Below, piece after piece: positions 6,652-18,561 of a stretch of 64,000 bases of DNA. The notes below the pieces were generated by a model. The model had not been told where the DNA came from. It saw nothing but the letters and a program-made list of their open reading frames with translations, and searched no databases. A program made the position numbers and the translations under genes. Source of the DNA: a virus; the IMG/VR virus record IMGVR_UViG_3300031578_000017, one strand, 5' to 3'. Positions within the stretch are counted from its first letter, which is position 1; the number at the start of each line of letters is the position of its first letter.

Positions 6652-6930
6652 TTAGCTATTGTGTGCTGTTTCTATTTCTTTAAGTTTCTTTGCCTTTTCA
6701 ATTCCTAGTTCAGTCAAACAGATGGTTTCGCTTGTAGATTTCCAATAATTCATCATATCACCAATTTCCATCAGTTTATTAAAGTAATCAATATTATGTC
6801 CTTGGTGCATGAATCCTAAATACATTGGTCCCTTGGGAGTTGGTGTTGTGCCTTTATCAAGTTCATAGGCAGTAGAAAGAATAACAGATAAGTGAAGCAT
6901 TATTCGCTGTACTTCTGCATCTCTTGACAT
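6652..6930 (-). CDS. hypothetical (winged-helix-like C-terminus)
   Basis: ICLTELGIEKAK wing-like motif; promoter GAT-TTGCAA-N17-TATACT at 6979-7010. Confidence 0.55.
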   Translation of the reverse strand: MSRDAEVQRIMLHLSVILSTAYELDKGTTPTPKGPMYLGFMHQGHNIDYFNKLMEIGDMMNYWKSTSETICLTELGIEKAKKLKEIETAHNS

Positions 6931-7205
6931 GACTTTCTCCTTTCGTGTTAATCCTTGACAACCTTACTGCACAACCTAAGTATAAAATCTAACATTGTTC
7001 ATTGCAAATCAAATATAAACTTTTAAGACTAGATTTTTCCCGTAAAAGTTACCGATAATCAAATAATAAAGGTATGTATATAGCGATTGTTATGAGCATA
7101 GGGGAATTTTTATTTCTTCTCTTTTAAATATGAAATTATGAAAATATGGATATTGTATCGTAACTAGTCTGCATTGTCTTTCTCCTTTGCTTGGTCCACG
7201 GAAAA

Positions 7206-7709
7206 CTACTCCCTGATTGCGTTCTTCATGGCGTGTTCAATGGCTCGATTGCCTAGCCCGATGGCCGACAACTGTGCGCCCAACTCGCTCAACTCCTCAC
7301 TGACAACAGACTCTATGTACGAATCTTCACTGTCTGATTCAATTCCCCATAGGCCACCGCTTCGGATGGTTTGACATACTCCGCCTATTACAACTGTTGC
7401 CTTTGCGACGATTCCGAGAAAGCACCACCCGCCATTTTGCAAAGATTCCATGCGTGAAAAGTCCTGTTTCCCGTACGTGATGTATTCTTTTGTACCCGGC
7501 TTTTCTCCTCCCGCGTAGGGTATGAAGAACCGGTATTCCCGGCCCTTGTCTGGCGTCTCGTGTTCATCTCCGCATAGCGATAGGTACTCGCCGCAATGCC
7601 GGCAGATAGCCCAGTCGGACGCGGTATCCGTGTATTCCCCGATGTAGGATACGTCCGGGTCAACGTCCGACTCTGTTACGACTCTCACTTCGGTAATGTG
7701 CGCTTTCAT
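7206..7709 (-). CDS. conserved phage hypothetical protein
   Basis: 167 aa, AAGGAGG RBS, CxxC and GLWGIESDS motif. Confidence 0.7.
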   Translation of the reverse strand: MKAHITEVRVVTESDVDPDVSYIGEYTDTASDWAICRHCGEYLSLCGDEHETPDKGREYRFFIPYAGGEKPGTKEYITYGKQDFSRMESLQNGGWCFLGIVAKATVVIGGVCQTIRSGGLWGIESDSEDSYIESVVSEELSELGAQLSAIGLGNRAIEHAMKNAIRE

Positions 7710-7763
7710 CCGGCCTCCTTCGCGACTTTAACGCCCTGCGTCCCCTTAGCCTTTGTCGAGTCC

Positions 7764-8003
7764 TCACTGACAGCACTCGGCTTGATGTGGGCATCGGCGC
7801 TTGATCTTGTACGCTTCCGGCTGGCACGTTAGCCAAACAACATCGTCGGTGTGCTCAATCTTATCCAGCACGCAGCACCCGTGGTATCGCCAGTAAAATA
7901 CCGTGCCGTCTGCGGCTACATGTACCCTGGCTATCCCTTGATCTGCGCTATTGTGCCAGTGAATGTAGTCCCACCCAAACAGAAAATGAAGTAACCGCCA
8001 CAT
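7764..8003 (-). CDS. hypothetical protein (start MWRLLHF)
   Basis: AAGGAG RBS 6 nt before ATG at 8003. Confidence 0.65.
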   Translation of the reverse strand: MWRLLHFLFGWDYIHWHNSADQGIARVHVAADGTVFYWRYHGCCVLDKIEHTDDVVWLTCQPEAYKIKRRCPHQAECCQ

Positions 8004-8074
8004 CGCTAACTCCTTTCGGAGGTAATTTCGCTTTCGTTCCGACGTGCAACCGCTGCACGTCCGCGTGGTTCCTC
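8004..8074 (-). repeat. structured intergenic element, copy A (GAGGAAC-hairpin-AAAGnGAAATTACCT-hairpin/SD)
   Basis: 49/55 nt identical to 12785-12839; 8-bp stem GACGTGCA/TGCACGTC; CTCC-GAAA-GGAG hairpin contains the SD. Confidence 0.8.
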
Positions 8075-8077
8075 TGG

Positions 8078-8275
8078 TTATCTTAAACACCTGAACACTT
8101 TTGGAATGCGAAATCTACTCGGCATGTCGCTGTAAAGAGGCACGTCTCGTTCGTCGAAAAGCCGACGACTGAAACACCAGTCTGCAAAATCGAATCCGTG
8201 CCACGATCCGCAAGTAAACCATCTGTGCATCCACATTTTATTGCGGCGCTTACGTCTGGCTGCATTCTTGCCCAT
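8078..8275 (-). CDS. small basic hypothetical protein
   Basis: 65 aa, AGGAGG RBS. Confidence 0.6.
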   Translation of the reverse strand: MGKNAARRKRRNKMWMHRWFTCGSWHGFDFADWCFSRRLFDERDVPLYSDMPSRFRIPKVFRCLR

Positions 8276-8290
8276 GTGTGGTTCCTCCTA

Positions 8291-8498
8291 TTAACTTGCG
8301 CACGACGAAACGAAATGCACACCCTCGTCATCGAGAGGTATTTCAGTCAACGACCAATCTTCCTTTTCAGATTTCGGAAGCTCGTGCAGGGCCAAGCCCA
8401 AGGCCACGCTTTCACTTGTAGCCACAATCACAAACTCTTTATTCTCATATCCTCCGTACTTCAACTGACTGCTGTACGAGGCGTTAAACACTTTCATC
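8291..8498 (-). CDS. hypothetical protein (start MKVFNASY)
   Basis: GGAGG RBS before ATG at 8498. Confidence 0.6.
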
Positions 8499-8531
8499 TG
8501 GCGTCCTCCCTGACAGTTAATTGCATTTATC

Positions 8532-8807
8532 TTACATCCTATGTATACCAGATAACTCTCCAGCATACTTGCGCTCTTCTTCAAGCATTGCCTGTTCTTT
8601 GGCAACCTGATCTACGGTCTTAATAATCGGACCCTTAATAAAGGTTTTCATATATCCTGACTGCACCAAATCAGACTTAGTCAACGCGAATCTGCTACGT
8701 CGAAATCCAAACACTTTGGTAAGTTTAAGATCTGCTAATTCTGCCTTTTTCTTTCGTTGTGTAGCCAAGTCCAGATGAGAGAGTTTCGGTCTTCCACGTT
8801 TAGCCAT
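8532..8807 (-). CDS. basic hypothetical protein (AT-hook-like KRGRPK N-terminus)
   Basis: 91 aa; promoter GAT-TTGCTT-N17-TATATA-CCTT at 8851-8886. Confidence 0.6.
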   Translation of the reverse strand: MAKRGRPKLSHLDLATQRKKKAELADLKLTKVFGFRRSRFALTKSDLVQSGYMKTFIKGPIIKTVDQVAKEQAMLEEERKYAGELSGIHRM

Positions 8808-8891
8808 TTTCTTACCCCTGACTTGGACAACCCCTATTGGTTGCCGCTAAAAGGTATATACATTCTTGCACATCTTTAAGCAAATCTGTTT

Positions 8892-9164
8892 TTACTTTGT
8901 TTGAATTTTATGTACCTTTCCTTTGAATTTGACTTCCAACAATCCCTCAATTGGTATCATTCTATATCCAACTTTGTGCATATCAAATACTCCAATGAGA
9001 TCGTGTTCACTTGGCACATAATTCAACTTCTCACCTTTTGTGTATTTTCTCACACCAAGGCGTCCAACAAGAACACGCCTTTCTCCTGTGCTACGTTTGA
9101 TAAATGTAGCACGGAAGATCTTGCCGTGTGTACTACGGATTACGTCGGGAAGTGATTGTTTCAT
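8892..9164 (-). CDS. SH3/WYL-like beta-barrel phage protein
   Basis: IFRATFIKRSTGERRVL...VFDM.K.GYRMI pattern. Confidence 0.55.
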   Translation of the reverse strand: MKQSLPDVIRSTHGKIFRATFIKRSTGERRVLVGRLGVRKYTKGEKLNYVPSEHDLIGVFDMHKVGYRMIPIEGLLEVKFKGKVHKIQTK

Positions 9165-9382
9165 TTGTCACCCTTTCTTTGTATTTCACTACTCAAATCT
9201 TTTCTAAGTCTTCCATTTTCTTCCATCAATCTTGTTTTTTCTTCAAGCAATTCTGCAACAAAAACAGCTAATTCATATTCACAATATTCAGGATCGCTAA
9301 TTGCACCATCTGCTATAAGAACCATATTCTCCATCACATACCTTTTACTGTTTAATGTGAATGCAAAATTCGCTTTATCCAT
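9161..9382 (-). CDS. hypothetical protein
   Basis: 73 aa, coupled to the next gene. Confidence 0.5.
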   Translation of the reverse strand: MDKANFAFTLNSKRYVMENMVLIADGAISDPEYCEYELAVFVAELLEEKTRLMEENGRLRKDLSSEIQRKGDK

Positions 9383-9387
9383 TTTTC

Positions 9388-9636
9388 TTATCCTTTCAAA
9401 TCGCCCATTTTGTCTAACACCACCACATCGCCGTAAATCAACATTCCAACCAAATCAGATGCTTTTGTGTTTACTTCTGGATGAATTTTAAGTTTAGCTT
9501 CCTCATCTACAAGCATAAACTTTTTCTTTGGAAGTTTAATAACTTCGACGTAACCTTTCACAATACCTTGAGCTTCTTTCAAAGTAATAGTGTCTCCAGT
9601 TTGTACTTCACCACTTGTTTTTAGAATCCTATACAT
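9388..9636 (-). CDS. DUF3846-like protein
   Basis: TLKEAQGIVKGYVEVI...MLVDEEAKLK...VN..AS...IYGDVVV. Confidence 0.65.
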   Translation of the reverse strand: MYRILKTSGEVQTGDTITLKEAQGIVKGYVEVIKLPKKKFMLVDEEAKLKIHPEVNTKASDLVGMLIYGDVVVLDKMGDLKG

Positions 9637-9644
9637 TGCTCCTC

Positions 9645-9959
9645 CTAGAAAAATGGCAAATGGTTTTCCTTAGAAATCTTGTGCAACTCTGCAAACAATT
9701 TGCAGGACGCTTCATTCCTCATATCACAGTAACCTTTTTCATATTGATCTGCATAAAACGATATGATTTTCTGTATAAATCTTGCCATACTTTGTTGGTG
9801 AGTAGGATGTTGCCTGTTAATCATTTCAAAAATTTTAGCTAACGATTCGCTATCACCATTCCCAAAATTACGTATAGCACATTGATCAAACAGAATCTTA
9901 AAAGCTATCTCTGTTTGGTTCGCTGGTGTTAAATCATTTAGTGCTTTTTCCAAATCCAT
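9645..9959 (-). CDS. hypothetical protein
   Basis: 104 aa, AAGGAG RBS; promoter GAC-TTGTGT-N17-TTTAAT-ACCTA at 9988-10023. Confidence 0.65.
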   Translation of the reverse strand: MDLEKALNDLTPANQTEIAFKILFDQCAIRNFGNGDSESLAKIFEMINRQHPTHQQSMARFIQKIISFYADQYEKGYCDMRNEASCKLFAELHKISKENHLPFF

Positions 9960-10090
9960 GTTGCTCTCCTTTAAACCCTTAACCCATAGGTATTAAACAC
10001 TCTACACCGTTTCAACACAAGTCTTAAGTTAAATTGTTTGAAATTAAGGTCACGCCAGCAGCCTAATCGAAGCGACTAGGGGCAGTAAAC

Positions 10091-10381
10091 CTAGTCCCTA
10101 CTGGCGTGACCACTCTCCCTTGGGTAATGAAAGGGTCTAGAATCGGTATCGTTTGGATCTTCTAACTTTATATCACTTCCAGGAACTTGTTGCCATTTTT
10201 CACCACCCAATAATTCTTGTAAGACTATAACTGTTATCTTTTCATTATTTGTTGTGTCTGCCATCATTCTAAATATACGCAAAACTCCTTGGTCACAACA
10301 CATTTCATCACACAAGGTTGGTTTATCTTCAGAAGTATATGTTAAACCATCTTCCGTTTGATACATATAAATTGTTTTCAT
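10091..10381 (-). CDS. hypothetical protein
   Basis: 96 aa, GAGG RBS. Confidence 0.6.
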   Translation of the reverse strand: MKTIYMYQTEDGLTYTSEDKPTLCDEMCCDQGVLRIFRMMADTTNNEKITVIVLQELLGGEKWQQVPGSDIKLEDPNDTDSRPFHYPRESGHASRD

Positions 10382-10697
10382 TTTGCCTCTCCCATTGGTT
10401 CCTAGACAACTTTAAACCTTGCACTACCTGCCATACACAAACGGTTTAGAATATACTCCACGACACAGCTAAATAGTCGTTGATAACCATTTTATTGTTA
10501 GGCACAGCACATATAATGTACAAATTATTTCATTTTCCATCTTAAGCAAGAATGTGTTTCTACGTGAACTTTATTCGTGATCTTGCATTTTATCCAATTA
10601 ATGGGTCTATTAAACCATTTAGGATCAACATATCCAACAACATCTTTGTGATATTTGCAGTATCTACATATTTTTCTCATTTCGTTATTCCTTTAAG

Positions 10698-10770
10698 TGC
10701 GTTCGGTGGGGTTCGAACCCACGACCAACGGATTAAAAGTCCGCTACTCTACCAACTGAGCTACGAACGC
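10698..10770 (-). tRNA. tRNA-Lys(UUU)
   Basis: cloverleaf; anticodon arm GCGGA-CTTTTAA-TCCGT; GGTTCGAACC T-arm; no encoded CCA. Confidence 0.95.
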
Positions 10771-10776
10771 AGAACT

Positions 10777-10852
10777 TGGCATCCTCGGCAGGACTCGAAC
10801 CTGCAACCTACAGATTAGAAATCTGTTGCACTATCCATTGTGCTACGAGGAC
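10777..10852 (-). tRNA. tRNA-Arg(UCU)
   Basis: ACAGA-TTTCTAA-TCTGT; ends in GCCA. Confidence 0.95.
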
Positions 10853-10854
10853 AC

Positions 10855-10926
10855 AGCCACCTTCAGGACTCGAACCTGAAACCCCCGCATTACAAATGCG
10901 GAGCTCTACCATTGAGCTAAGGTGGC
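10855..10926 (-). tRNA. tRNA-Thr(UGU)
   Basis: CCGCA-TTTGTAA-TGCGG; GGTTCGAGTCC T-arm. Confidence 0.95.
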
Positions 10927-10928
10927 AA

Positions 10929-11231
10929 TTAATCTTCTTCCTCGTCGTTATCTTCATTATCTACAATTTTCTTTCTACAATCTTCTACAACATTCTTATC
11001 TTCTGTCTGTTTTTCAACTTCTGTCAAATCTTCATATTGTCTCAAAAAATCTCCTAAGATAGGAGCTAATTTAATTGTTTCATTATAAATAAGATCTTGT
11101 TCATCTTCTATATCTAATTTATTTATAAGTTTCCTAACTCTGAATTTAAAATCTGCTTTTAATGCTGAAAGTTTAGTTAAATATTCTGTTCCATTTATAG
11201 ATTTGTATCTTACAACTTTAACAATTTTCAC
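10929..11231 (-). CDS. hypothetical protein, acidic C-terminus
   Basis: 100 aa, AAGGAG RBS plus GTG. Confidence 0.6.
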   Translation of the reverse strand: MKIVKVVRYKSINGTEYLTKLSALKADFKFRVRKLINKLDIEDEQDLIYNETIKLAPILGDFLRQYEDLTEVEKQTEDKNVVEDCRKKIVDNEDNDEEED

Positions 11232-11253
11232 TTTCTTCTCCTTCTAAATTTAA

Positions 11254-11321
11254 GGGACCACACACCTCGGATGACTGTGGAGGAGGGGTTTCCAGGGACG
11301 CCATCCTTAGTGTGTGGTCCC
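11254..11321 (-). ncRNA. candidate structured RNA with apical anti-SD-like loop
   Basis: 12-bp outer stem GGGACCACACAC/GTGTGTGGTCCC, inner GGATG/CATCC, loop contains ACCCCTCCTCC. Confidence 0.45.
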
Positions 11322-11395
11322 AATCTTGTATTCAAAGAACAACCTACCCTACTTACATACAACATTTCACAACCCACTCAACATAAATCCTTTTA

Positions 11396-12061
11396 CTAAA
11401 ACAAATAATCTTCAAGATATTCTGGATTATCATGATGTTTTGACATTCTTTCTTTTACTCTCAAAGTCAAACCAGATTTATTATCAAATTTTGAATATGG
11501 AATTTTTATAAATATATCTATAAACATTATATAAGAAACAATGAAATCAATATTTCTATATTTAATATTTTCTAAATTTGAATGTTTTGTTCCATTTATA
11601 CTTACTTTTTCTCCATCAAAATTACAATTCTTACATTGTATAATTTCAAAACTCCCATTAATGCTTGAAATAAAATCTACTTCAGAACTTTCATTCAGTG
11701 GAATAAATATTTCATATCCTAACTGTATAAATCTACTCTGACATTTAGATTCTATAAAACTTCCAAGATGAAAAGTAGTAATTTCTTTTCCAACTATAGA
11801 CTTTAATATGTTCCAATTTTCAAATTTTCGTTTTTCTTCTTCAGTCAACAATTTTCGTTTATCCCAACCCCAACAAGATTTTTCATCTATATCTAGAATA
11901 TATCTTAAACTTTGTATCTTTTCTACAGATACGCCGTAAAAATCAGCAACTTCTTGAAATGACATAAATTCAAAATCTTTTATCAATTGTTCTTTTATAA
12001 TTGGTCTATTTTCATTATTTAATTGATCAGATCTTAATTTGATTAATTCTTTGATATTCAT
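11396..12061 (-). CDS. free-standing PD-(D/E)xK homing endonuclease (I-Ssp6803I/PDDEXK_5-like) with N-terminal HTH
   Basis: GSFIE...F..LGYEIFIP...EVDFI...IIQCK; N-terminal FQEVADFYGVS HTH; GGAG RBS before ATG 12061. Confidence 0.7.
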   Translation of the reverse strand: MNIKELIKLRSDQLNNENRPIIKEQLIKDFEFMSFQEVADFYGVSVEKIQSLRYILDIDEKSCWGWDKRKLLTEEEKRKFENWNILKSIVGKEITTFHLGSFIESKCQSRFIQLGYEIFIPLNESSEVDFISSINGSFEIIQCKNCNFDGEKVSINGTKHSNLENIKYRNIDFIVSYIMFIDIFIKIPYSKFDNKSGLTLRVKERMSKHHDNPEYLEDYLF

Positions 12062-12076
12062 GATTTTCTCCAAAAA

Positions 12077-12155
12077 TGGTTGGAGCGGAGAGGATCGAAC
12101 CCTTCTACGGACAGGTGTTTATAAGACACCTCGAGTCAACCAGACTTTCGCTCCA
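12077..12155 (-). tRNA. atypical tRNA-Ile(UAU)
   Basis: TGGAGCG/CGCTCCA acceptor plus ACCA; GGTGT-CTTATAA-ACACC; GGTTCGATC T-loop; short D-loop, long variable region. Confidence 0.75.
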
Positions 12156-12214
12156 ATGTACCTACCTTATGTACACTTGCTCTAACCGTCTTAAAATAAT
12201 ATTTCTATACAATT

Positions 12215-12301
12215 TGGTGCTCCGGGAGGGAGTCGAACCCTCATGGTCGTAAGACCAACGGTTCTTAAGACCGTTGCGTATCCCAATTCCGCCACCGGAG
12301 C
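12215..12301 (-). tRNA. tRNA-Leu(UAA)
   Basis: ACGGT-CTTAAGA-ACCGT, long variable arm GGTC-TTAC-GACC, ends in ACCA. Confidence 0.95.
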
Positions 12302-12307
12302 AACAGA

Positions 12308-12508
12308 TCAACTCACATCAAACCATTTCATGCATGTCTGCAACAAATGATCATAATCACCATTCATTGCTTCTTCAGTAAATTCATCAATTTGTTCTTT
12401 AGTCAATCCTGCTTTCTTTGCTGCCGATGTACATGCTCCCAAAACAACAAAAGCGTTTCCATTTTGACCAACCAATTCTACTTCAACATGTGGAAACTTA
12501 ATTTCCAT
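12308..12508 (-). CDS. conserved phage hypothetical protein
   Basis: LVGQNGNAF..LG...GDYDHLL motif widespread in phages. Confidence 0.75.
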   Translation of the reverse strand: MEIKFPHVEVELVGQNGNAFVVLGACTSAAKKAGLTKEQIDEFTEEAMNGDYDHLLQTCMKWFDVS

Positions 12509-12537
12509 TTTATTCTCCTTTGGTAAGGTAACTTAAT

Positions 12538-12753
12538 TTATCTTGACTGCATTCGTTTTACGGCATCGTGGGGAGCCTGCATGTCAACGCTAGTTGGATG
12601 CTCCAATTCCGCGACGCGGGCCTCCAGTTCCATGATTCGTTTATCCCTCGGGTCTTCGGGTGCAGTCAGAGATGGATCATCCGCGCACGGACACCCTTTT
12701 TCGTGTAGATGTGAGTAGAACATGTCGCCAACGCCACACTTGCACTTTCCCAT
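12538..12753 (-). CDS. small Cys/His protein
   Basis: CKCG...HEKGCPC; AAGGAG RBS. Confidence 0.6.
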   Translation of the reverse strand: MGKCKCGVGDMFYSHLHEKGCPCADDPSLTAPEDPRDKRIMELEARVAELEHPTSVDMQAPHDAVKRMQSR

Positions 12754-12839
12754 CGGATTCTCCTTTTACGCCACTAAAGGCGTCAGGTAATTTCTCTTTC
12801 CGTCCGCCGTGCAACCGCTGCACGGCCACGTGGTTCCTC
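12754..12839 (-). repeat. structured intergenic element, copy B
   Basis: 49/55 identity to copy A with a compensatory A-U to C-G stem change; second hairpin ACGCC/GGCGT before SD. Confidence 0.8.
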
Positions 12840-12878
12840 ACTTTACATTGCACTCCCCGCGTTGCGAAATACAGGATC

Positions 12879-13115
12879 TTACGCCCCGTACCCGTCCCCG
12901 TCCCCGGACCCGTCCCCGTCCCCGTCCCCGTACCCGGACCCGGACCCGTACCCGTACCCGTACCCGTACCCGGACCCGGACCCGTACCCGTCCCCGTCCC
13001 CGTACCCGTACCCGGACCCGTCCCCGGACCCGTACCCGTACCCGTACCCGGACCCGTACCCGTCCCCGTCCCCGTACCCGTACCCGGACCCGTCAAGCGT
13101 TACTTGCATTTCCAT
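12879..13115 (-). CDS. Gly-Tyr/Gly-Asp/Gly-Ser dipeptide-repeat protein
   Basis: hexamer repeats GGGTAC/GGGGAC/GGGTCC at about 12885-13094; overlaps the end of the DUF6948-like gene, a pairing recalled from other phages. Confidence 0.65.
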   Translation of the reverse strand: MEMQVTLDGSGYGYGDGDGYGSGYGYGYGSGDGSGYGYGDGDGYGSGSGYGYGYGYGSGSGYGDGDGDGSGDGDGYGA

Positions 13116-13372
13116 TTCGATTCCTCCGATTCAATGACTGCAATCACCGCACGCATAGGAATTCGCACCGTAGTGATTGGATCAAGTTTGGTTTTTTTGG
13201 TCGGTCCGTTCTGCGCCAACTCGCCAAGCCCATTCGTGGTGCCCCAATATCGCACGTTGTTCGCGTTCGTCACAATGCACCACTCGGGCGTAATTTCTAA
13301 ATTCCCGACGTAGACGAATCCACGATCAGCGACTACGATCCCGAATCCTGCCAACACTTTTTTCTCGGTCAT
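13100..13372 (-). CDS. DUF6948-like protein
   Basis: IVVADRGFVYVG...NANNVRYWGTTNGLGELAQNGP. Confidence 0.7.
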   Translation of the reverse strand: MTEKKVLAGFGIVVADRGFVYVGNLEITPEWCIVTNANNVRYWGTTNGLGELAQNGPTKKTKLDPITTVRIPMRAVIAVIESEESKWKCK

Positions 13373-13474
13373 TACTCACGTCCTTTCCGCGCCTCGTAGG
13401 CGCAAGGTAATTTCCTTTGTAACCCCATGAAGTATAGGGGGTTGACCCCTGATACTTCATGGGGTTAGTTCCTC
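13373..13474 (-). repeat. structured intergenic element, copy C
   Basis: GAGGAAC + perfect 16-bp stem (13420-13435/13452-13467) + CAAAGGAAATTACCT + GCGCC-TACGA-GGCGC + AAAGGA. Confidence 0.75.
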
Positions 13475-13483
13475 CGGTTGACT

Positions 13484-13636
13484 CTAGTCGTTCACATCTG
13501 TATCTTTTGCCAATCGCTCTGCCCATTTACGGATATTTGGTTTCCTCTTTGGCCGTAACGCACATTTTAATAACATGGTTACTTCAGTATACTTCACTAA
13601 CCGCTTTCGTTTGCGAAGCCGATCCAAGGCATCCAT
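13484..13636 (-). CDS. small basic protein (not in ORF track)
   Basis: MDALDRLRKRKRLVKY..., 50 aa, AAGGAG RBS. Confidence 0.55.
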   Translation of the reverse strand: MDALDRLRKRKRLVKYTEVTMLLKCALRPKRKPNIRKWAERLAKDTDVND

Positions 13637-13674
13637 GCAGGCTCTCCTTTCGTAAAGGTAATTATGATTACCTT
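13637..13674 (-). repeat. reduced copy D of the structured element
   Basis: AAGGTAAT-CATA-ATTACCTT palindrome; CCTT-TACGA-AAGG hairpin over the SD. Confidence 0.55.
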
Positions 13675-13921
13675 ACATGTGAACCATCACCTGTCTTGCT
13701 GCTTCTCCACCTTTACCTGTGACTTTGCAAATCCCATCTTCAATTTCAACATAACCATAGTCTTTTAGAACATGTACAATTTTCAAACTCTCTTGAACTG
13801 TGCAATGCATTTCTCTTTTCAAAGTTATATATAAGTCCCTTAAAGATATAGATTTAGAAGATTTTCTATAAATTATTACAAGTATTGAAACAGTTGTGTA
13901 CATCATTTCTTCTGGTTTCAT
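13673..13921 (-). CDS. winged-helix protein
   Basis: SISLRDLY...LKDYGYVEI...CKVTGKG. Confidence 0.6.
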   Translation of the reverse strand: MKPEEMMYTTVSILVIIYRKSSKSISLRDLYITLKREMHCTVQESLKIVHVLKDYGYVEIEDGICKVTGKGGEAARQVMVHM

Positions 13922-13922
13922 T

Positions 13923-14165
13923 TCATGTACTCCAAACTATTTGGTTTTCATTATCTTTCAATATCTGTTGTTTATCTAACAAACTTAAGAAGTTAATTTC
14001 TGACTTAGCACGAACAGTTGCTTTCAAAAATTGTTCTGGTGTGATAACAGGATCCTCAGTATTCAACTGATTATTAATTTCCTCAATGACCCCAAGAACT
14101 ACTAGACACGAATCTATGTAGTTATCGTGTTGTATTTTGCTCTGGTCTATTCTTAATTTTATCAT
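13923..14165 (-). CDS. hypothetical protein
   Basis: 80 aa, coupled. Confidence 0.55.
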   Translation of the reverse strand: MIKLRIDQSKIQHDNYIDSCLVVLGVIEEINNQLNTEDPVITPEQFLKATVRAKSEINFLSLLDKQQILKDNENQIVWST

Positions 14166-14166
14166 G

Positions 14167-14895
14167 TTACCCCCTATGTGTTAAATCTTTACTGACACCC
14201 AAATCTACTTTTTCAGCCTCACGTTGGCCGTGACGGTAAGCATCACCATTCCATTCTCCACCGCTACACCTAGCCTTAGATTTTCTAAGATGTAACACGT
14301 CTTTACCATATTTTTCAATGGCATTTTTCTTTTCAAATATAACCATTTCATACTTTTGATTACCAGTAGTTTCTTTCTTAAAACTATCAATTTGTTCTTT
14401 AACACGATGATAAAGTCTATTAACAAATCCTTCCATAAAGCATCTTTGGGACGGCATATCGCTTCCATAAAATTGCTTAGACATTTTATAAATCTTTTCA
14501 TGAAGATAAAGATAGAGCTCTTTAGCAATTGACCTATCCCATTCAGTTCCGATATAACCTACTTGCCATAGTATAGAATTACCACTTCTATATACCTTAT
14601 TAAAGTATCCATTTGTTTCTGTTGCTGTTCCGATCACAACTATTAATGTCTTTTCCCAAGATGACATACTACTACGTTTCAATTCAAACACAATTTCATT
14701 TTCAATCTCAATACCAACCACTTTTTCTTGAGTATTGTCAATCGCAATCTCTGACATATCAAGATTGTGTTTTTGTAATAATTCCTGTGCCTTCTGCAAA
14801 GCTGCTTCTGCTTCTGATTCAGAAGAATTGCGGTCCTTGTTTCCAAGGTTAAACAACTTGCGGATTAAAGCAATTACTTCTTCTTTTGACTTCAT
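14167..14895 (-). CDS. DUF2786-domain protein
   Basis: IRKLFNLG...SESEAEAALQKAQELLQKHNL; F.EGFV..L; AY..G..E. Confidence 0.8.
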   Translation of the reverse strand: MKSKEEVIALIRKLFNLGNKDRNSSESEAEAALQKAQELLQKHNLDMSEIAIDNTQEKVVGIEIENEIVFELKRSSMSSWEKTLIVVIGTATETNGYFNKVYRSGNSILWQVGYIGTEWDRSIAKELYLYLHEKIYKMSKQFYGSDMPSQRCFMEGFVNRLYHRVKEQIDSFKKETTGNQKYEMVIFEKKNAIEKYGKDVLHLRKSKARCSGGEWNGDAYRHGQREAEKVDLGVSKDLTHRG

Positions 14896-16551: not shown

Positions 16552-18561
16552 ATGAACAATTTGGTCAAAACATCAACATTTCCAAACATGGGTTACAAAT
16601 TTTCTGAATTTAATCCATTCCAAAGCCAATTTTATCCGCATAAGGATGATGATAAAAATGTCGTCATAGCGGCACAAACAGGAAGTGGCAAATCTGTTAT
16701 AGCAGAACTCTGTATAAATAGTTCTATAACTAATGGTGCAAGAGCTATTTTTCTTGCTCCAATGCGAGCATTGGTTCAAGAAAAATACGACGATTGGACA
16801 AAAGAAGGCCATACCTTTAAACAATATGGCGTAAGCATTCTTTCAGGCGATTACAAACTTACGGACGCCAAAAAGAAAGAGTTGCTTGAAAACAAAATCA
16901 TTGTCATGACATCTGAAATGTTAGACAGTCGTTCACGGCGTATGAAGACAGAAGGTAATGTATGGTTGCTCGAAACGACTACACTTATTATTGACGAAGC
17001 ACACATTATTGGAATGCTTAACCAAGGTGAAGATTCATTAAAAGCGAGAGGTCACAAACTTGAAGCCGCAATCATGCGGTTTACTAATCTTAACCCTAAT
17101 TGCAGAATTGTTTTGTTGTCTGCTACATTGCCAAATCTACCTCAACTTGGTGAATGGTTAACTAAACTCAACAACAAAGAAACGATAACTATTGTGTCAG
17201 ATTGGCGTCCTCAACCTCTTGAATGGCATGTAGAAACGTACCAAGAATCTTCTGGTTACGGTTCGTACCATATAAACAAATCAAAAATGTTCCAAAAGGC
17301 AGAAGATGTGATTAAACAATATCCTAAAGATATGTGGTTAATTTTCTGCCATTCTAAAAACGATGGTAGAAGATTTGTAAATCAAATTTCCGATAGTAAA
17401 GTAATTAATCCAGATGGTGAAACAATACCTTTCCATTGTGCTGATTTGGAAAAAGGTGAACGTGTTAGTTTAGAAAATGGTTTTAGAACTAAATCTGCGA
17501 AGATTATGGTTGCTACCTCTACACTTGCCTATGGTGTTAATCTTCCAGCGAGACGTGTCATGATTCTAGACGATAAACGTGGCCTTTCCCCTGTACACCC
17601 TTACGACATCAAACAAATGGGTGGTCGTGCTGGTCGTCCTGGAATTGACCCACGCGGTGATGTCCATTGGATTGTTGGAGATAGGTCTGCAAGTGAAGCA
17701 GATTTCCTCATTAACAATATGCCTGAAGCAAAATCTCAAATGTTTGATTTGGATACCTTTGCCTTCCATGTTGTTGCAGAAATTGCTGAAGGTGATATCA
17801 CTAATGCACAAGGTGTATGGGATTTCTACAACCGTTGCCTAGCTCGTCATCAAGGTGCAGAAGTAAGTAAAGAATGGGTTACGCAACTAGTTGAAAAACT
17901 TATTGAAGTTAATGCAATTAAAGTTTTAGAAGATGGGCTTACACTGAAAGCTACTGGTTTAGGTCGCGTTGCTTCTTGGCTTTACTTTAGTCCTTTTGAT
18001 ATTTGGCATTGGTACAACAATCTTAGGATTTTAGTAGAATCAAAACGTACAGATGATGCTGCTATTGCTTGGATGTGGAGTTGTGTGCGTTCAAATGGTA
18101 TGAATTATATACCTAAGGATTGCCAAGACGAAGTACGTAATTTCCAAAACGAACTTTCTAATCTTGGACCTTGCCGTAGTGCTGAAACAATGGCACTAGG
18201 AATTTGGTTGCAGTTGAAAGGTACAGAAAACAAAGATTTCCCAAGTGGTTGTATCGCTATGGCTCGTAACTATATTTATGATACAGAGCGTGTAGCACAA
18301 GCTCTTATATTGATTGATAAAATGTATGCCAAACTTGATGCTGATAATTTCATCAAACAATGTGCTATTCGTGTTTCTTACGGTGTAGGTTGGGATGCAG
18401 CAAAACTCTGTATGCTTCCCGGCATTGGTAAGAAACGTTCCGAAAACTTGATTTCTAATGGTATTAAGTCTCGCGAAGATTTGATGCAAAAAGAAAAAGT
18501 TGGCAGAGCTGTGCTCGGTGATAAAATTTACGAAAAAGCATTGGAGATAGAAAATGGGTAA
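16552..18561 (+). CDS. Ski2/Hel308-like SF2 helicase
   Basis: AQTGSGKS, IIDEAH, LSAT, STLAYGVNLPAR, QMGGRAGRPG; winged helix/ratchet region; C-terminal HhH LPGIGKKRS. Confidence 0.9.
   Translation: MNNLVKTSTFPNMGYKFSEFNPFQSQFYPHKDDDKNVVIAAQTGSGKSVIAELCINSSITNGARAIFLAPMRALVQEKYDDWTKEGHTFKQYGVSILSGDYKLTDAKKKELLENKIIVMTSEMLDSRSRRMKTEGNVWLLETTTLIIDEAHIIGMLNQGEDSLKARGHKLEAAIMRFTNLNPNCRIVLLSATLPNLPQLGEWLTKLNNKETITIVSDWRPQPLEWHVETYQESSGYGSYHINKSKMFQKAEDVIKQYPKDMWLIFCHSKNDGRRFVNQISDSKVINPDGETIPFHCADLEKGERVSLENGFRTKSAKIMVATSTLAYGVNLPARRVMILDDKRGLSPVHPYDIKQMGGRAGRPGIDPRGDVHWIVGDRSASEADFLINNMPEAKSQMFDLDTFAFHVVAEIAEGDITNAQGVWDFYNRCLARHQGAEVSKEWVTQLVEKLIEVNAIKVLEDGLTLKATGLGRVASWLYFSPFDIWHWYNNLRILVESKRTDDAAIAWMWSCVRSNGMNYIPKDCQDEVRNFQNELSNLGPCRSAETMALGIWLQLKGTENKDFPSGCIAMARNYIYDTERVAQALILIDKMYAKLDADNFIKQCAIRVSYGVGWDAAKLCMLPGIGKKRSENLISNGIKSREDLMQKEKVGRAVLGDKIYEKALEIENG

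Follow-up and report, generated by a model that had tools for sequence, protein, structure and literature searches.

The stretch analysed here, referred to as the window, comprises 64,000 nucleotides of a large phage with a GC content of about 32%. Two GC-rich islands of orphan ORFs (45-55% GC) lie on its minus strand, and all elements described below are confined to them. Island 1 (7206..8524) encodes proteins of 68 aa (8291-8497), 65 aa (8078-8275), 79 aa (7764-8003) and 167 aa (7206-7709). Island 2 (12509..13672) encodes a 50-aa protein (13484-13636), a DUF6948-like protein of 90 aa (13100-13372), a 78-aa protein with a GYG repeat (12879-13115) and a 71-aa protein (12538-12753). GC3 values of the island ORFs ranged from 0.45 to 0.94 (0.52-0.61 in island 1) versus 0.13-0.37 for the flanking genes. 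Two AT-rich relatives with about 80% amino-acid identity to the window, L014 and L015, lack island 2, and their ORF82 homologue directly adjoins the ORF66 homologue; by this comparison island 2 is an insertion. Based on the GC3 contrast and the lack of island 2 in both relatives, the islands were judged to be foreign to the window phage. The island sequence was identical in three independent assemblies with even depth and is therefore not an assembly artefact.

Four elements (A-D) had been reported by the first-pass annotation as minus-strand structures, and each was indeed located 3' of a stop codon and 5' of the next ribosome-binding site (RBS). Element A (8001..8080) separates ORF65 from ORF79 and consists of the stop codon TAA (8080-8078), GAGGAAC (8074-8068), a first hairpin (8063-8039), the box GAAATTACCT (8029-8020), the RBS AAAGGAG (8016-8010) and the ATG (8003-8001). 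Element B (12751..12853), between the GYG-repeat ORF78 and ORF71, contains GAGGAAC (12839-12833), hairpin 1 (12828-12804), the box (12794-12785), a second hairpin (12783-12768), the RBS (12766-12760) and the ATG (12753-12751). In element C (13370..13486), which separates ORF50 from ORF90, the stop codon TAG (13486-13484) is followed by GGAGGAAC (13475-13468), a 48-nt palindrome (13467-13420), the box (13414-13405), hairpin 2 (13403-13389), the RBS (13387-13381) and the ATG (13372-13370). Element D (13634..13675), which marks the left border of island 2, has the form AAGGTAAT-CATA-ATTACCTT, the first bases of which overlap the stop codon (TAA 13675-13673, AAGGTAAT 13674-13667, ATTACCTT box 13662-13655), with an RBS at 13650-13644 and an ATG at 13636-13634.

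The sequence GAAATTACCT occurs exactly three times in the 64 kb, every time within the elements. A search for TTACCT followed by an RBS and a start codon returned five sites, all on the minus strand of the islands, and exposed a further copy, element E (12506-12535; 12506..12540 with the stop codon included), at the right border of island 2, with the stop codon TAA at 12540-12538, the box AAGTTACCT at 12534-12526, an RBS at 12521-12515 and the ATG of ORF66 at 12508-12506. ORF66 is AT-rich, and its N-terminal part is replaced in comparison with L014 and L015, which keep that part. A degenerate copy, element F (8495-8524; 8495..8534 with the stop codon included), could be added on the same strand, bordering island 1 on its left (stop codon TAA 8534-8532, box GCAATTAACT 8524-8515, RBS GGGAGG 8510-8505, ATG 8497-8495).

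Elements A and B form a 72-nt direct repeat with 81% identity. The annotated match of 49 out of 55 nt between them, from GAGGAAC to ACCT, was reproduced on recalculation, as was the single compensatory change (A-U to C-G) in their 10-bp hairpin. Element C shares the ends of A and B and contains a perfect palindrome with 16-nt arms (fold z-score -6.2); both this stem and the palindrome of D agreed with their earlier description. Compared with shuffled sequences, A, B and D fold only slightly better (z -1.6 to -2.0). Covariation, proposed as a check, was not significant for hairpin 1, where one compensatory pair in three copies was equalled or bettered by 155 of 500 shuffles. Hairpin 2 was rejected as a single covarying helix, since its two versions cannot be aligned in register.

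The same linker was found in a lineage of uncultured soil phages with 55-57% GC (L016, L031, L033 and L034), represented by contigs of 1.7-7.3 kb and hereafter called the donors. Their non-overlapping genes are joined by a stop codon, (A)GGCAATC, a box RRTTAMSW (variants AATTACC(T/A), AATTAACT and GAGTTACGT), an RBS and a start codon. In the short form the box is followed after 1-8 nt by a GGAG-type RBS and, 5-8 nt further, by the start codon. Element D fits this short pattern (stop, AGGYAATC, NNN, RTTACS). In the long form GGAGGAAC and AAAG precede the box. GC-rich hairpins may occupy two fixed slots, the first from GGAAC to AAAG (A, B and C), the second from the box to the RBS (B and C). Upstream of the ORF90 orthologue, L033 carries GGAGGAAC-AAAG-GGAATTACCT with no hairpin 1; this empty scaffold indicates that the hairpins are dispensable, and it bears out the proposal of conserved ends with an exchangeable core. 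A third module of the A/B type stands 5' of the 97.5% identical cassette gene in L016 (90% identity to A, 88% to B).

In 15.3 kb of donor and island sequence, the coding strand has 17 arrangements of box, RBS and start codon and the opposite strand has none, while shuffles gave 0.56 arrangements, with a maximum of 3. Elsewhere it occurred only at background level (10 and 2 in 521 kb of IMG/VR loci, 5 and 1 in 311 kb of genome loci), and it was not found in L014 and L015. By these counts the arrangement is lineage-specific. Like linkers stand 5' of non-homologous ORFs, and the linker is independent of the gene downstream.

Homology to the donors begins and ends at these linkers. One cassette of island 1, that of ORF68, is 97.5% identical to L016 (window 8522-8285, L016 4313-4550). 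The similarity opens at AATTAACT in the box (8522) and closes 6 nt beyond the stop codon, at 8285, in the ORF68/ORF65 junction (8273..8293, minus strand), where GAGGAACCAC (8287-8278), the 5' end of the A/B module, acts as the RBS of ORF65. Homology to L031 (85%) opens at the box of C. L021, a natural variant of L016, lacks 266 bp of it and is otherwise equal, and at the crossover two boxes overlap by the 5 nt AATTA. For the ORF68 cassette, three differing upstream contexts join within about 2 nt of one point. In the approximately four junctions examined, sequence comparison thus located the 5' breakpoints in the box and the 3' breakpoints at the stop codon. The first-pass annotation had suggested cassette junctions and recommended looking for gene gain and loss at the elements; the L021 deletion with its crossover inside two boxes, donor homology running from box to stop, and the lack of island 2 in relatives all support that suggestion. 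The coincidence of breakpoint and box is partly expected from selection, because a transferred gene survives only if the break hits the short intergenic gap. No box is present at the island 2 site of L014 and L015, which implies that the island's first entry was not a box-to-box recombination.

We consider it probable that A-F are linkers native to the small 55-57% GC clade of soil phages, imported with small-gene cassettes, and that the mosaic breakpoints fall at the linker. That the linkers entered the ~32% GC phage along with orphan-gene cassettes of the donor pool is taken as shown by the homologies above. The 20-60 nt of linker similarity could serve as patches of short homology, at which crossovers would be made by phage-encoded recombination systems, represented by RecA in the window and RecT in L033; cassettes would then be gained, lost and reshuffled with genes unbroken. 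Such gene swaps are a known kind of phage mosaicism, and the sequence form is new. Any role at the RNA level, RNase III processing included, is putative. The strict coding-strand orientation and the fixed place just 5' of the RBS suggest that the transcribed box might be a leader signal for translation initiation or intercistronic processing, and the flanking hairpins might add stability to the upstream 3' and downstream 5' ends.

A possible though less favoured reading is that the elements are pure expression signals (translational leader, enhancer or RNA processing) with no part in recombination, the breakpoints coinciding with them through survival of leader plus gene. The confinement of the box to the coding strand just 5' of the RBS is consistent with this, and a predicted sigma-70 promoter upstream of one L016 box, outside the linker, implies that the box is transcribed. 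RNase E sites usually consist of an A/U-rich island flanked by hairpins, and the box is such an A/U-rich island in GC-rich RNA with hairpins on either side. The epsilon motif of T7 gene 10, a translational enhancer placed 5' of the RBS, is quoted as UUAACUUUA in PMC9590205, and the box resembles it, by eye only, in the TTAAC/TTAC-TTTA type sequence directly 5' of a strong RBS, e.g. GAGTTACGTTTA-GGAG in L016. However, the L016/L021 crossover lies in register within two boxes, and the spread of ~2 nt over three upstream contexts is narrower than selection for RBS integrity would demand.

Another reading, which we regard as unlikely, treats the hairpin cores as small mobile palindromic insertions targeting GGAAC/AAAG of the linker; the cores in question are a 33-nt module shared by A, B and L016 and, in C, the 48-nt palindrome. 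The site is empty in L033 and filled in C, both 5' of orthologous genes, GGAAC stands on both hairpin flanks in A, and A, B and the L016 copy are nearly equidistant (88-90%), as members of a multi-copy family would be. Against this, a single empty site is known, the 3' side reads GGACG rather than GGAAC in B and L016, and pattern scans of the metagenome and IMG/VR yielded no additional copies. Somewhat more doubtful still is a dedicated cassette-mobility system, with a phage nuclease or recombinase recognising AATTAMC or with hairpin cores inserting themselves by homing to the linker; if true, an AATTAMC-targeted enzyme would drive orphan-gene exchange between unrelated, GC-divergent phages with a common host.

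Little probability is given to riboregulators that switch translation of the downstream ORF, with ACCU of the box pairing to the RBS or GGA motifs binding CsrA. Pairings such as CUCC-GAAA-GGAG (A) and CCUU-UACGA-AAGG (D) are possible, and the box of D could pair either upstream or with the RBS; but the candidate RBS-burying hairpins of A and D have just 4-5 bp, and the RBS is free in the minimum-energy fold of D, which uses none of them. ACCU is missing from boxes such as AATTAACT or AATTACCA, and in L033 (800) the box runs directly into GGAGG, which leaves no space for a loop. As several donor linkers leave too little space, RBS sequestration, on the spacing seen, cannot be general. In agreement with the earlier statement that no known riboswitch or ribozyme could be recognised, only tRNAs matched Rfam at the gathering threshold, and nothing was found on A-E at E <= 1.

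By comparison with known systems, the linkers act like promoter-early stem-loops and Start-Associated Sequences (SAS) while lying outside both families; likeness to the former and to integron attC sites had been proposed by the first-pass annotation. Promoter-early stem-loops (PeSLs) of T4-type phages (Arbiol et al. 2010, PMC2839356; Comeau et al. 2014, PMC4122927) are likewise short conserved intergenic motifs with a hairpin that flank orphan genes in variable regions, and in both systems crossovers of insertions, deletions and replacements between related phages map to the motif. The junction behaviour is thus PeSL-like, as is the presence of a hairpin 3' of the stop codon in A, B and C. It is nevertheless very improbable that the elements are terminator and early-promoter cassettes of this type: scans of 6900-14200 gave no sigma-70-like promoter in A-E and no U-run after the hairpins of A, B and C (hairpin 1 continues with GGAACGAAAG or similar), and the one promoter-like site close to a box, that of L016, is located 5' of the linker and outside it. 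Moreover, the conserved part here is an 8-10 nt box beside the RBS with an optional hairpin, and it is native to the GC-rich donors and foreign to its present carrier. Membership in the integron attC family, as dedicated site-specific recombination sites, is the least probable, in spite of conserved ends and a foldable variable centre at cassette borders, as the ends are GAGGAAC and ATTACCT instead of inverse RYYYAAC/GTTRRRY cores, the sites lie 5' of genes adjoining the RBS, most copies have no palindrome, and no integrase was found among the 20 window ORFs scanned against Pfam.

A second parallel is offered by the SAS of Cluster K mycobacteriophages and their extended form, described by Pope et al. 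2011 (PMC3203893) as a 13-bp sequence, GGGATAGGAGCCC, 3-7 bp upstream of start codons, about half of the copies having an upstream inverted repeat with a variable spacer. Both are lineage-specific repeats in one orientation shortly upstream of the starts of unrelated genes (non-structural ones for SAS), with a presumed role in translation initiation. The two differ in that GGGATAGGAGCCC, which is absent here, contains the RBS, whereas the RRTTAMSW box lies 5' of it, and in the host group; mosaic breakpoints at SAS are not reported in the available text of Pope et al.

In IMG/VR, neither the hairpin core nor the two-end pattern nor a shared donor leader gave more than chance matches, a metagenome scan tolerating stem covariation returned the L016 lineage alone, and a covariance model derived from the A, B and L016 copies detected no further strong copies in 660 kb. 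A flanking 242-aa protein had no relative in IMG/VR, L016 protein look-ups retrieved only L016 itself, and 50,697 phage records contained no similar DNA except tRNAs. The window tRNAs read A/U-ending codons, which fits both phage types sharing a fairly GC-rich host. Several other candidates were dropped: L035 as box carrier (its phage is AT-rich and lacks the box); a small ORF within A, B and their L016 counterpart (start codon in L016 alone, stem change compensatory and not synonymous); an ECF-sigma promoter with GGAAC as -35 (no workably spaced -10, and L016 reads TGAAC); a promoter for a T7/T3-like single-subunit RNA polymerase (box-to-GGAG spacing from 1 to 20 nt); and pairing of GUUACCUU with 16S rRNA AAGGUAAC, a stretch inside helix 45.

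Taken as imported linkers, the elements represent a clean natural example of orphan-gene trade among phages. A phage with 32% GC carries cassettes that still share 85-97.5% identity with cassettes found in 55-57% GC phages of the same soil. Their junctions fall within a gene-start box of 8 nt, and one of the crossovers can be seen directly in a pair of natural variants. After PeSLs and SAS, this would be the third, sequence-unrelated case of "standard connectors" that couple expression to modular exchange.

Comparison of the intergenic elements A-D with contigs from soil metagenomes showed that they are gene-start linkers of a donor lineage, that they were imported together with their cassettes and that mosaic junctions coincide with them. 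The window belongs to a large AT-rich phage (~32% GC) and encodes a RecA with an intein, a class II ribonucleotide reductase, DnaB, helicases and five tRNAs, with a minus-strand gene run from ~4.7 to 15 kb. Two islands of four small ORFs each, island 1 (7206-8524) and island 2 (12509-13672), are set apart by composition, with GC3 values of 0.45-0.94 against 0.13-0.37 for the neighbouring genes. Searches against Pfam and PHROGs named none of the island ORFs, except for a weak DUF6948 match of the 90-aa ORF (ORF90). The window sequence could be found at 100% identity and even depth in ENA, JGI and Logan soil-metagenome assemblies, and therefore the islands are not assembly chimeras. Contig L011, otherwise identical to the window, carries 530 bp (17732-18261) that are absent from the window at 7164/7165. 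Owing to this deletion, a 182-aa ORF at the right edge of island 1 is truncated; its first ~35 codons are GC-rich and the rest is AT-rich, which marks the gene as a chimera. A Logan contig breaks at this very position, which suggests that the two forms occur side by side in a single sample. The region 12879-13372 of the window and 3010-3566 of contig L009 contain a conserved two-gene module, a DUF6948-like gene overlapping a Gly-Tyr-Gly/Asp repeat gene (labelled "lamprin" in MW202613), which recurs in many other genomes of temperate phages, among them Rhodobacter phage RcapNL and the Rheinheimera Barba phages.

All four elements described in the first-pass annotation are present in the window. 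A (8001-8080) and B (12751-12853) form a true repeat, with 49 of 55 positions matching from GAGGAAC to ACCT and a common 10-bp hairpin in which one A-U pair is exchanged for C-G. In C, these ends enclose a perfect palindrome of 48 nt (fold z-score -6.2), and D is a small palindrome overlapping a stop codon. The pattern TTACCT, ribosome-binding site and start codon has five occurrences in the 64 kb, every one of them in the islands and on the minus strand; it revealed that the right edge of island 2 holds a further copy, E (12506-12540). On the left edge of island 1 lies F (8495-8534), a degenerate copy with the box GCAATTAACT.

Contigs of neighbouring soil samples showed a joint between 8517 and 8023, as well as diverged copies of the ORF90 region. 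ORF68 could be traced to a contig family of 57% GC (L016-L021), whose genes code for a protein carrying DNA polymerase III beta domains, an ECF-like sigma factor and a DUF6094 protein. Window 8522-8285 and L016 4313-4550 share 97.5% identity. Upstream of the gene in this stretch, L016 has the A/B module for a third time (90% identity to A, 88% to B), which explains the joint. ORF90 was traced to L031 and L032 from the same study and to L033 and L034 from two other studies, all with 55-56% GC. In these donor contigs one stereotyped linker stands before almost all genes that are free of overlap with the gene upstream, in the order stop codon, (A)GGCAATC, RRTTAMSW box, a few nucleotides, GGAG and start codon, the box taking the forms AATTACC(T/A), AATTAACT or GAGTTACGT. 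Over 15.3 kb of donors and islands, the box was counted 21 times on the coding strand and three times on the other, and the box followed by ribosome-binding site and start codon 17 times against none (shuffles: mean 0.56, maximum 3). This arrangement stayed at background level in 521 kb of IMG/VR loci with DUF6948 homologues, in 311 kb of bacterial genome loci and in the AT-rich related phages L014 and L015, so that the linker is specific to the GC-rich donor lineage and foreign to the window phage. Similar linkers precede non-homologous ORFs, and A, B and the L016 copy each have unrelated genes on both sides. At 1138-1170 of L022, an AT-rich contig, an ORF68 homologue (85% nucleotide identity) has no box upstream, while a GGAGTTACCTTTG box directly follows its stop codon; it may represent an older, separate acquisition of the same cassette.

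The conserved ends and exchangeable core noted at first reading recur in the donors. Before the ORF90 orthologue, L033 reads GGAGGAAC-AAAG-GGAATTACCT, followed by a small hairpin and a ribosome-binding site, which is the proposed scaffold with its first hairpin slot empty. C is an L033-type leader with the 48-nt palindrome in this slot, and in A, B and the L016 copy the slot holds a 33-nt hairpin module. The second slot, between box and ribosome-binding site, contains differing 5-bp GC hairpins in B, in C and L031, and in L033 and L034; no hairpin fills it in A, D, E, F or the majority of donor linkers. D corresponds almost base for base to a short donor linker; near-complementarity of the post-stop AGGYAAT to the box ATTACCT makes it palindromic. 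The hairpin cores may themselves be small mobile palindromes, as both empty and filled sites exist and GGAAC flanks the hairpin of A on both sides. In L006, an unrelated IMG/VR contig of 60% GC, a terminator-like hairpin (2409-2431) has a 22-nt core identical to hairpin 1 of B, which could reflect chance or a shared hairpin module.

The earlier reading of the elements as cassette junctions is borne out by related phages without island 2, by donor homology starting at the box and by a crossover within two boxes. L014 and L015, with ~80% amino acid identity in the flanking DUF2786 protein, were compared with the window. In both, the ORF82 homologue is directly followed by the ORF66 homologue and tRNA-Leu, and island 2 is missing. 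ORF66 of the window has lost an N-terminal extension present in these phages and starts right after E; together with the relatives lacking island 2, this indicates that D and E mark the two edges of the insertion. The two islands are insertions. Homology between the window and L016 starts at AATTAACT and ends 6 nt past the stop codon, and that with L031 (85%) starts at the box of C. Upstream of the ORF68 cassette, three different contexts (window, L016, L021) join within ~2 nt of one point; downstream of it, three contexts part right after TAA(TA)GGAG, the next linker then following in a GAAC, TTACC or TTACG variant. L021 equals L016 minus 266 bp, having lost one gene and the hairpin module: its positions 1-100 and 96-2410 match L016 3947-4046 and 4313-6627, and the two matches overlap by 5 nt, AATTA, part of two boxes. 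Selection alone could place breakpoints in such a short intergenic gap; the crossover in register between L016 and L021 and the agreement of the three upstream contexts to within 2 nt, both from a small sample, argue that more than selection is at work.

Sequestration of the ribosome-binding site, CsrA binding and membership of the T4-type promoter-early stem-loops (PeSLs) or of integron attC sites are weak or fail on testing. The stems proposed to bury the ribosome-binding site have 4-5 bp. For A, B and D the fold is little better than that of shuffled sequences, and one compensatory pair in three sequences falls short of significance. The Rfam search of the elements gave no match even at E <= 1, and neither a sigma-70 promoter nor an intrinsic terminator consensus was found within them.

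As gene-start connectors, the linkers would serve as short-homology crossover points for the recombination systems of the phages; a RecT gene adjoins such cassettes in L033, and RecA is encoded in the window. The first entry into the AT-rich phage was not box-to-box, since the relatives have no box at that site. More tentatively, the box in RNA might be a leader signal for translation initiation or intercistronic processing, with stabilising hairpins alongside. One box in L016 would be transcribed, as a sigma-70 promoter is predicted upstream of it.

All five tRNAs of the window (10697-12301; Lys-UUU, Arg-UCU, Thr-UGU, Ile-UAU and Leu-UAA) serve A/U-ending codons. This points to a host with a higher GC content than the window phage, and the set fits an AT-rich phage in a GC-richer host, possibly common to the donors. 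L014 (11665-12012) and L015 (12217-12564) encode a tmRNA (tag ANDNIVRG...AIAA) shortly after tRNA-Leu. ARAGORN detected no tmRNA in the 64-kb window, where tRNA-Ile(UAU) and a PD-(D/E)XK endonuclease gene (11396-12061) occupy this position.

In their proposed role the linkers resemble the PeSLs of T4-type phages, which are thought to act as short-homology crossover points (PMC2839356, PMC4122927). In its orientation and its fixed position beside the ribosome-binding site, the box recalls the Start-Associated Sequences of Cluster K mycobacteriophages, whose role is presumed to lie in translation initiation (PMC3203893). A PeSL-like array is present in L035 (1400-8300), an unrelated phage contig of 38% GC, where many small genes are preceded by a recurring module made up of a promoter (TTGCAT...TAGTATAGT-like), a hairpin and a ribosome-binding site. 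The linkers belong to a known type of element, conserved connectors that stand at the starts of phage genes and also act as sites of exchange, and the sequence described here is new. Particular to this case are the transfer across a 25-point GC gap and the fact that donor and recipient were both caught in one soil.
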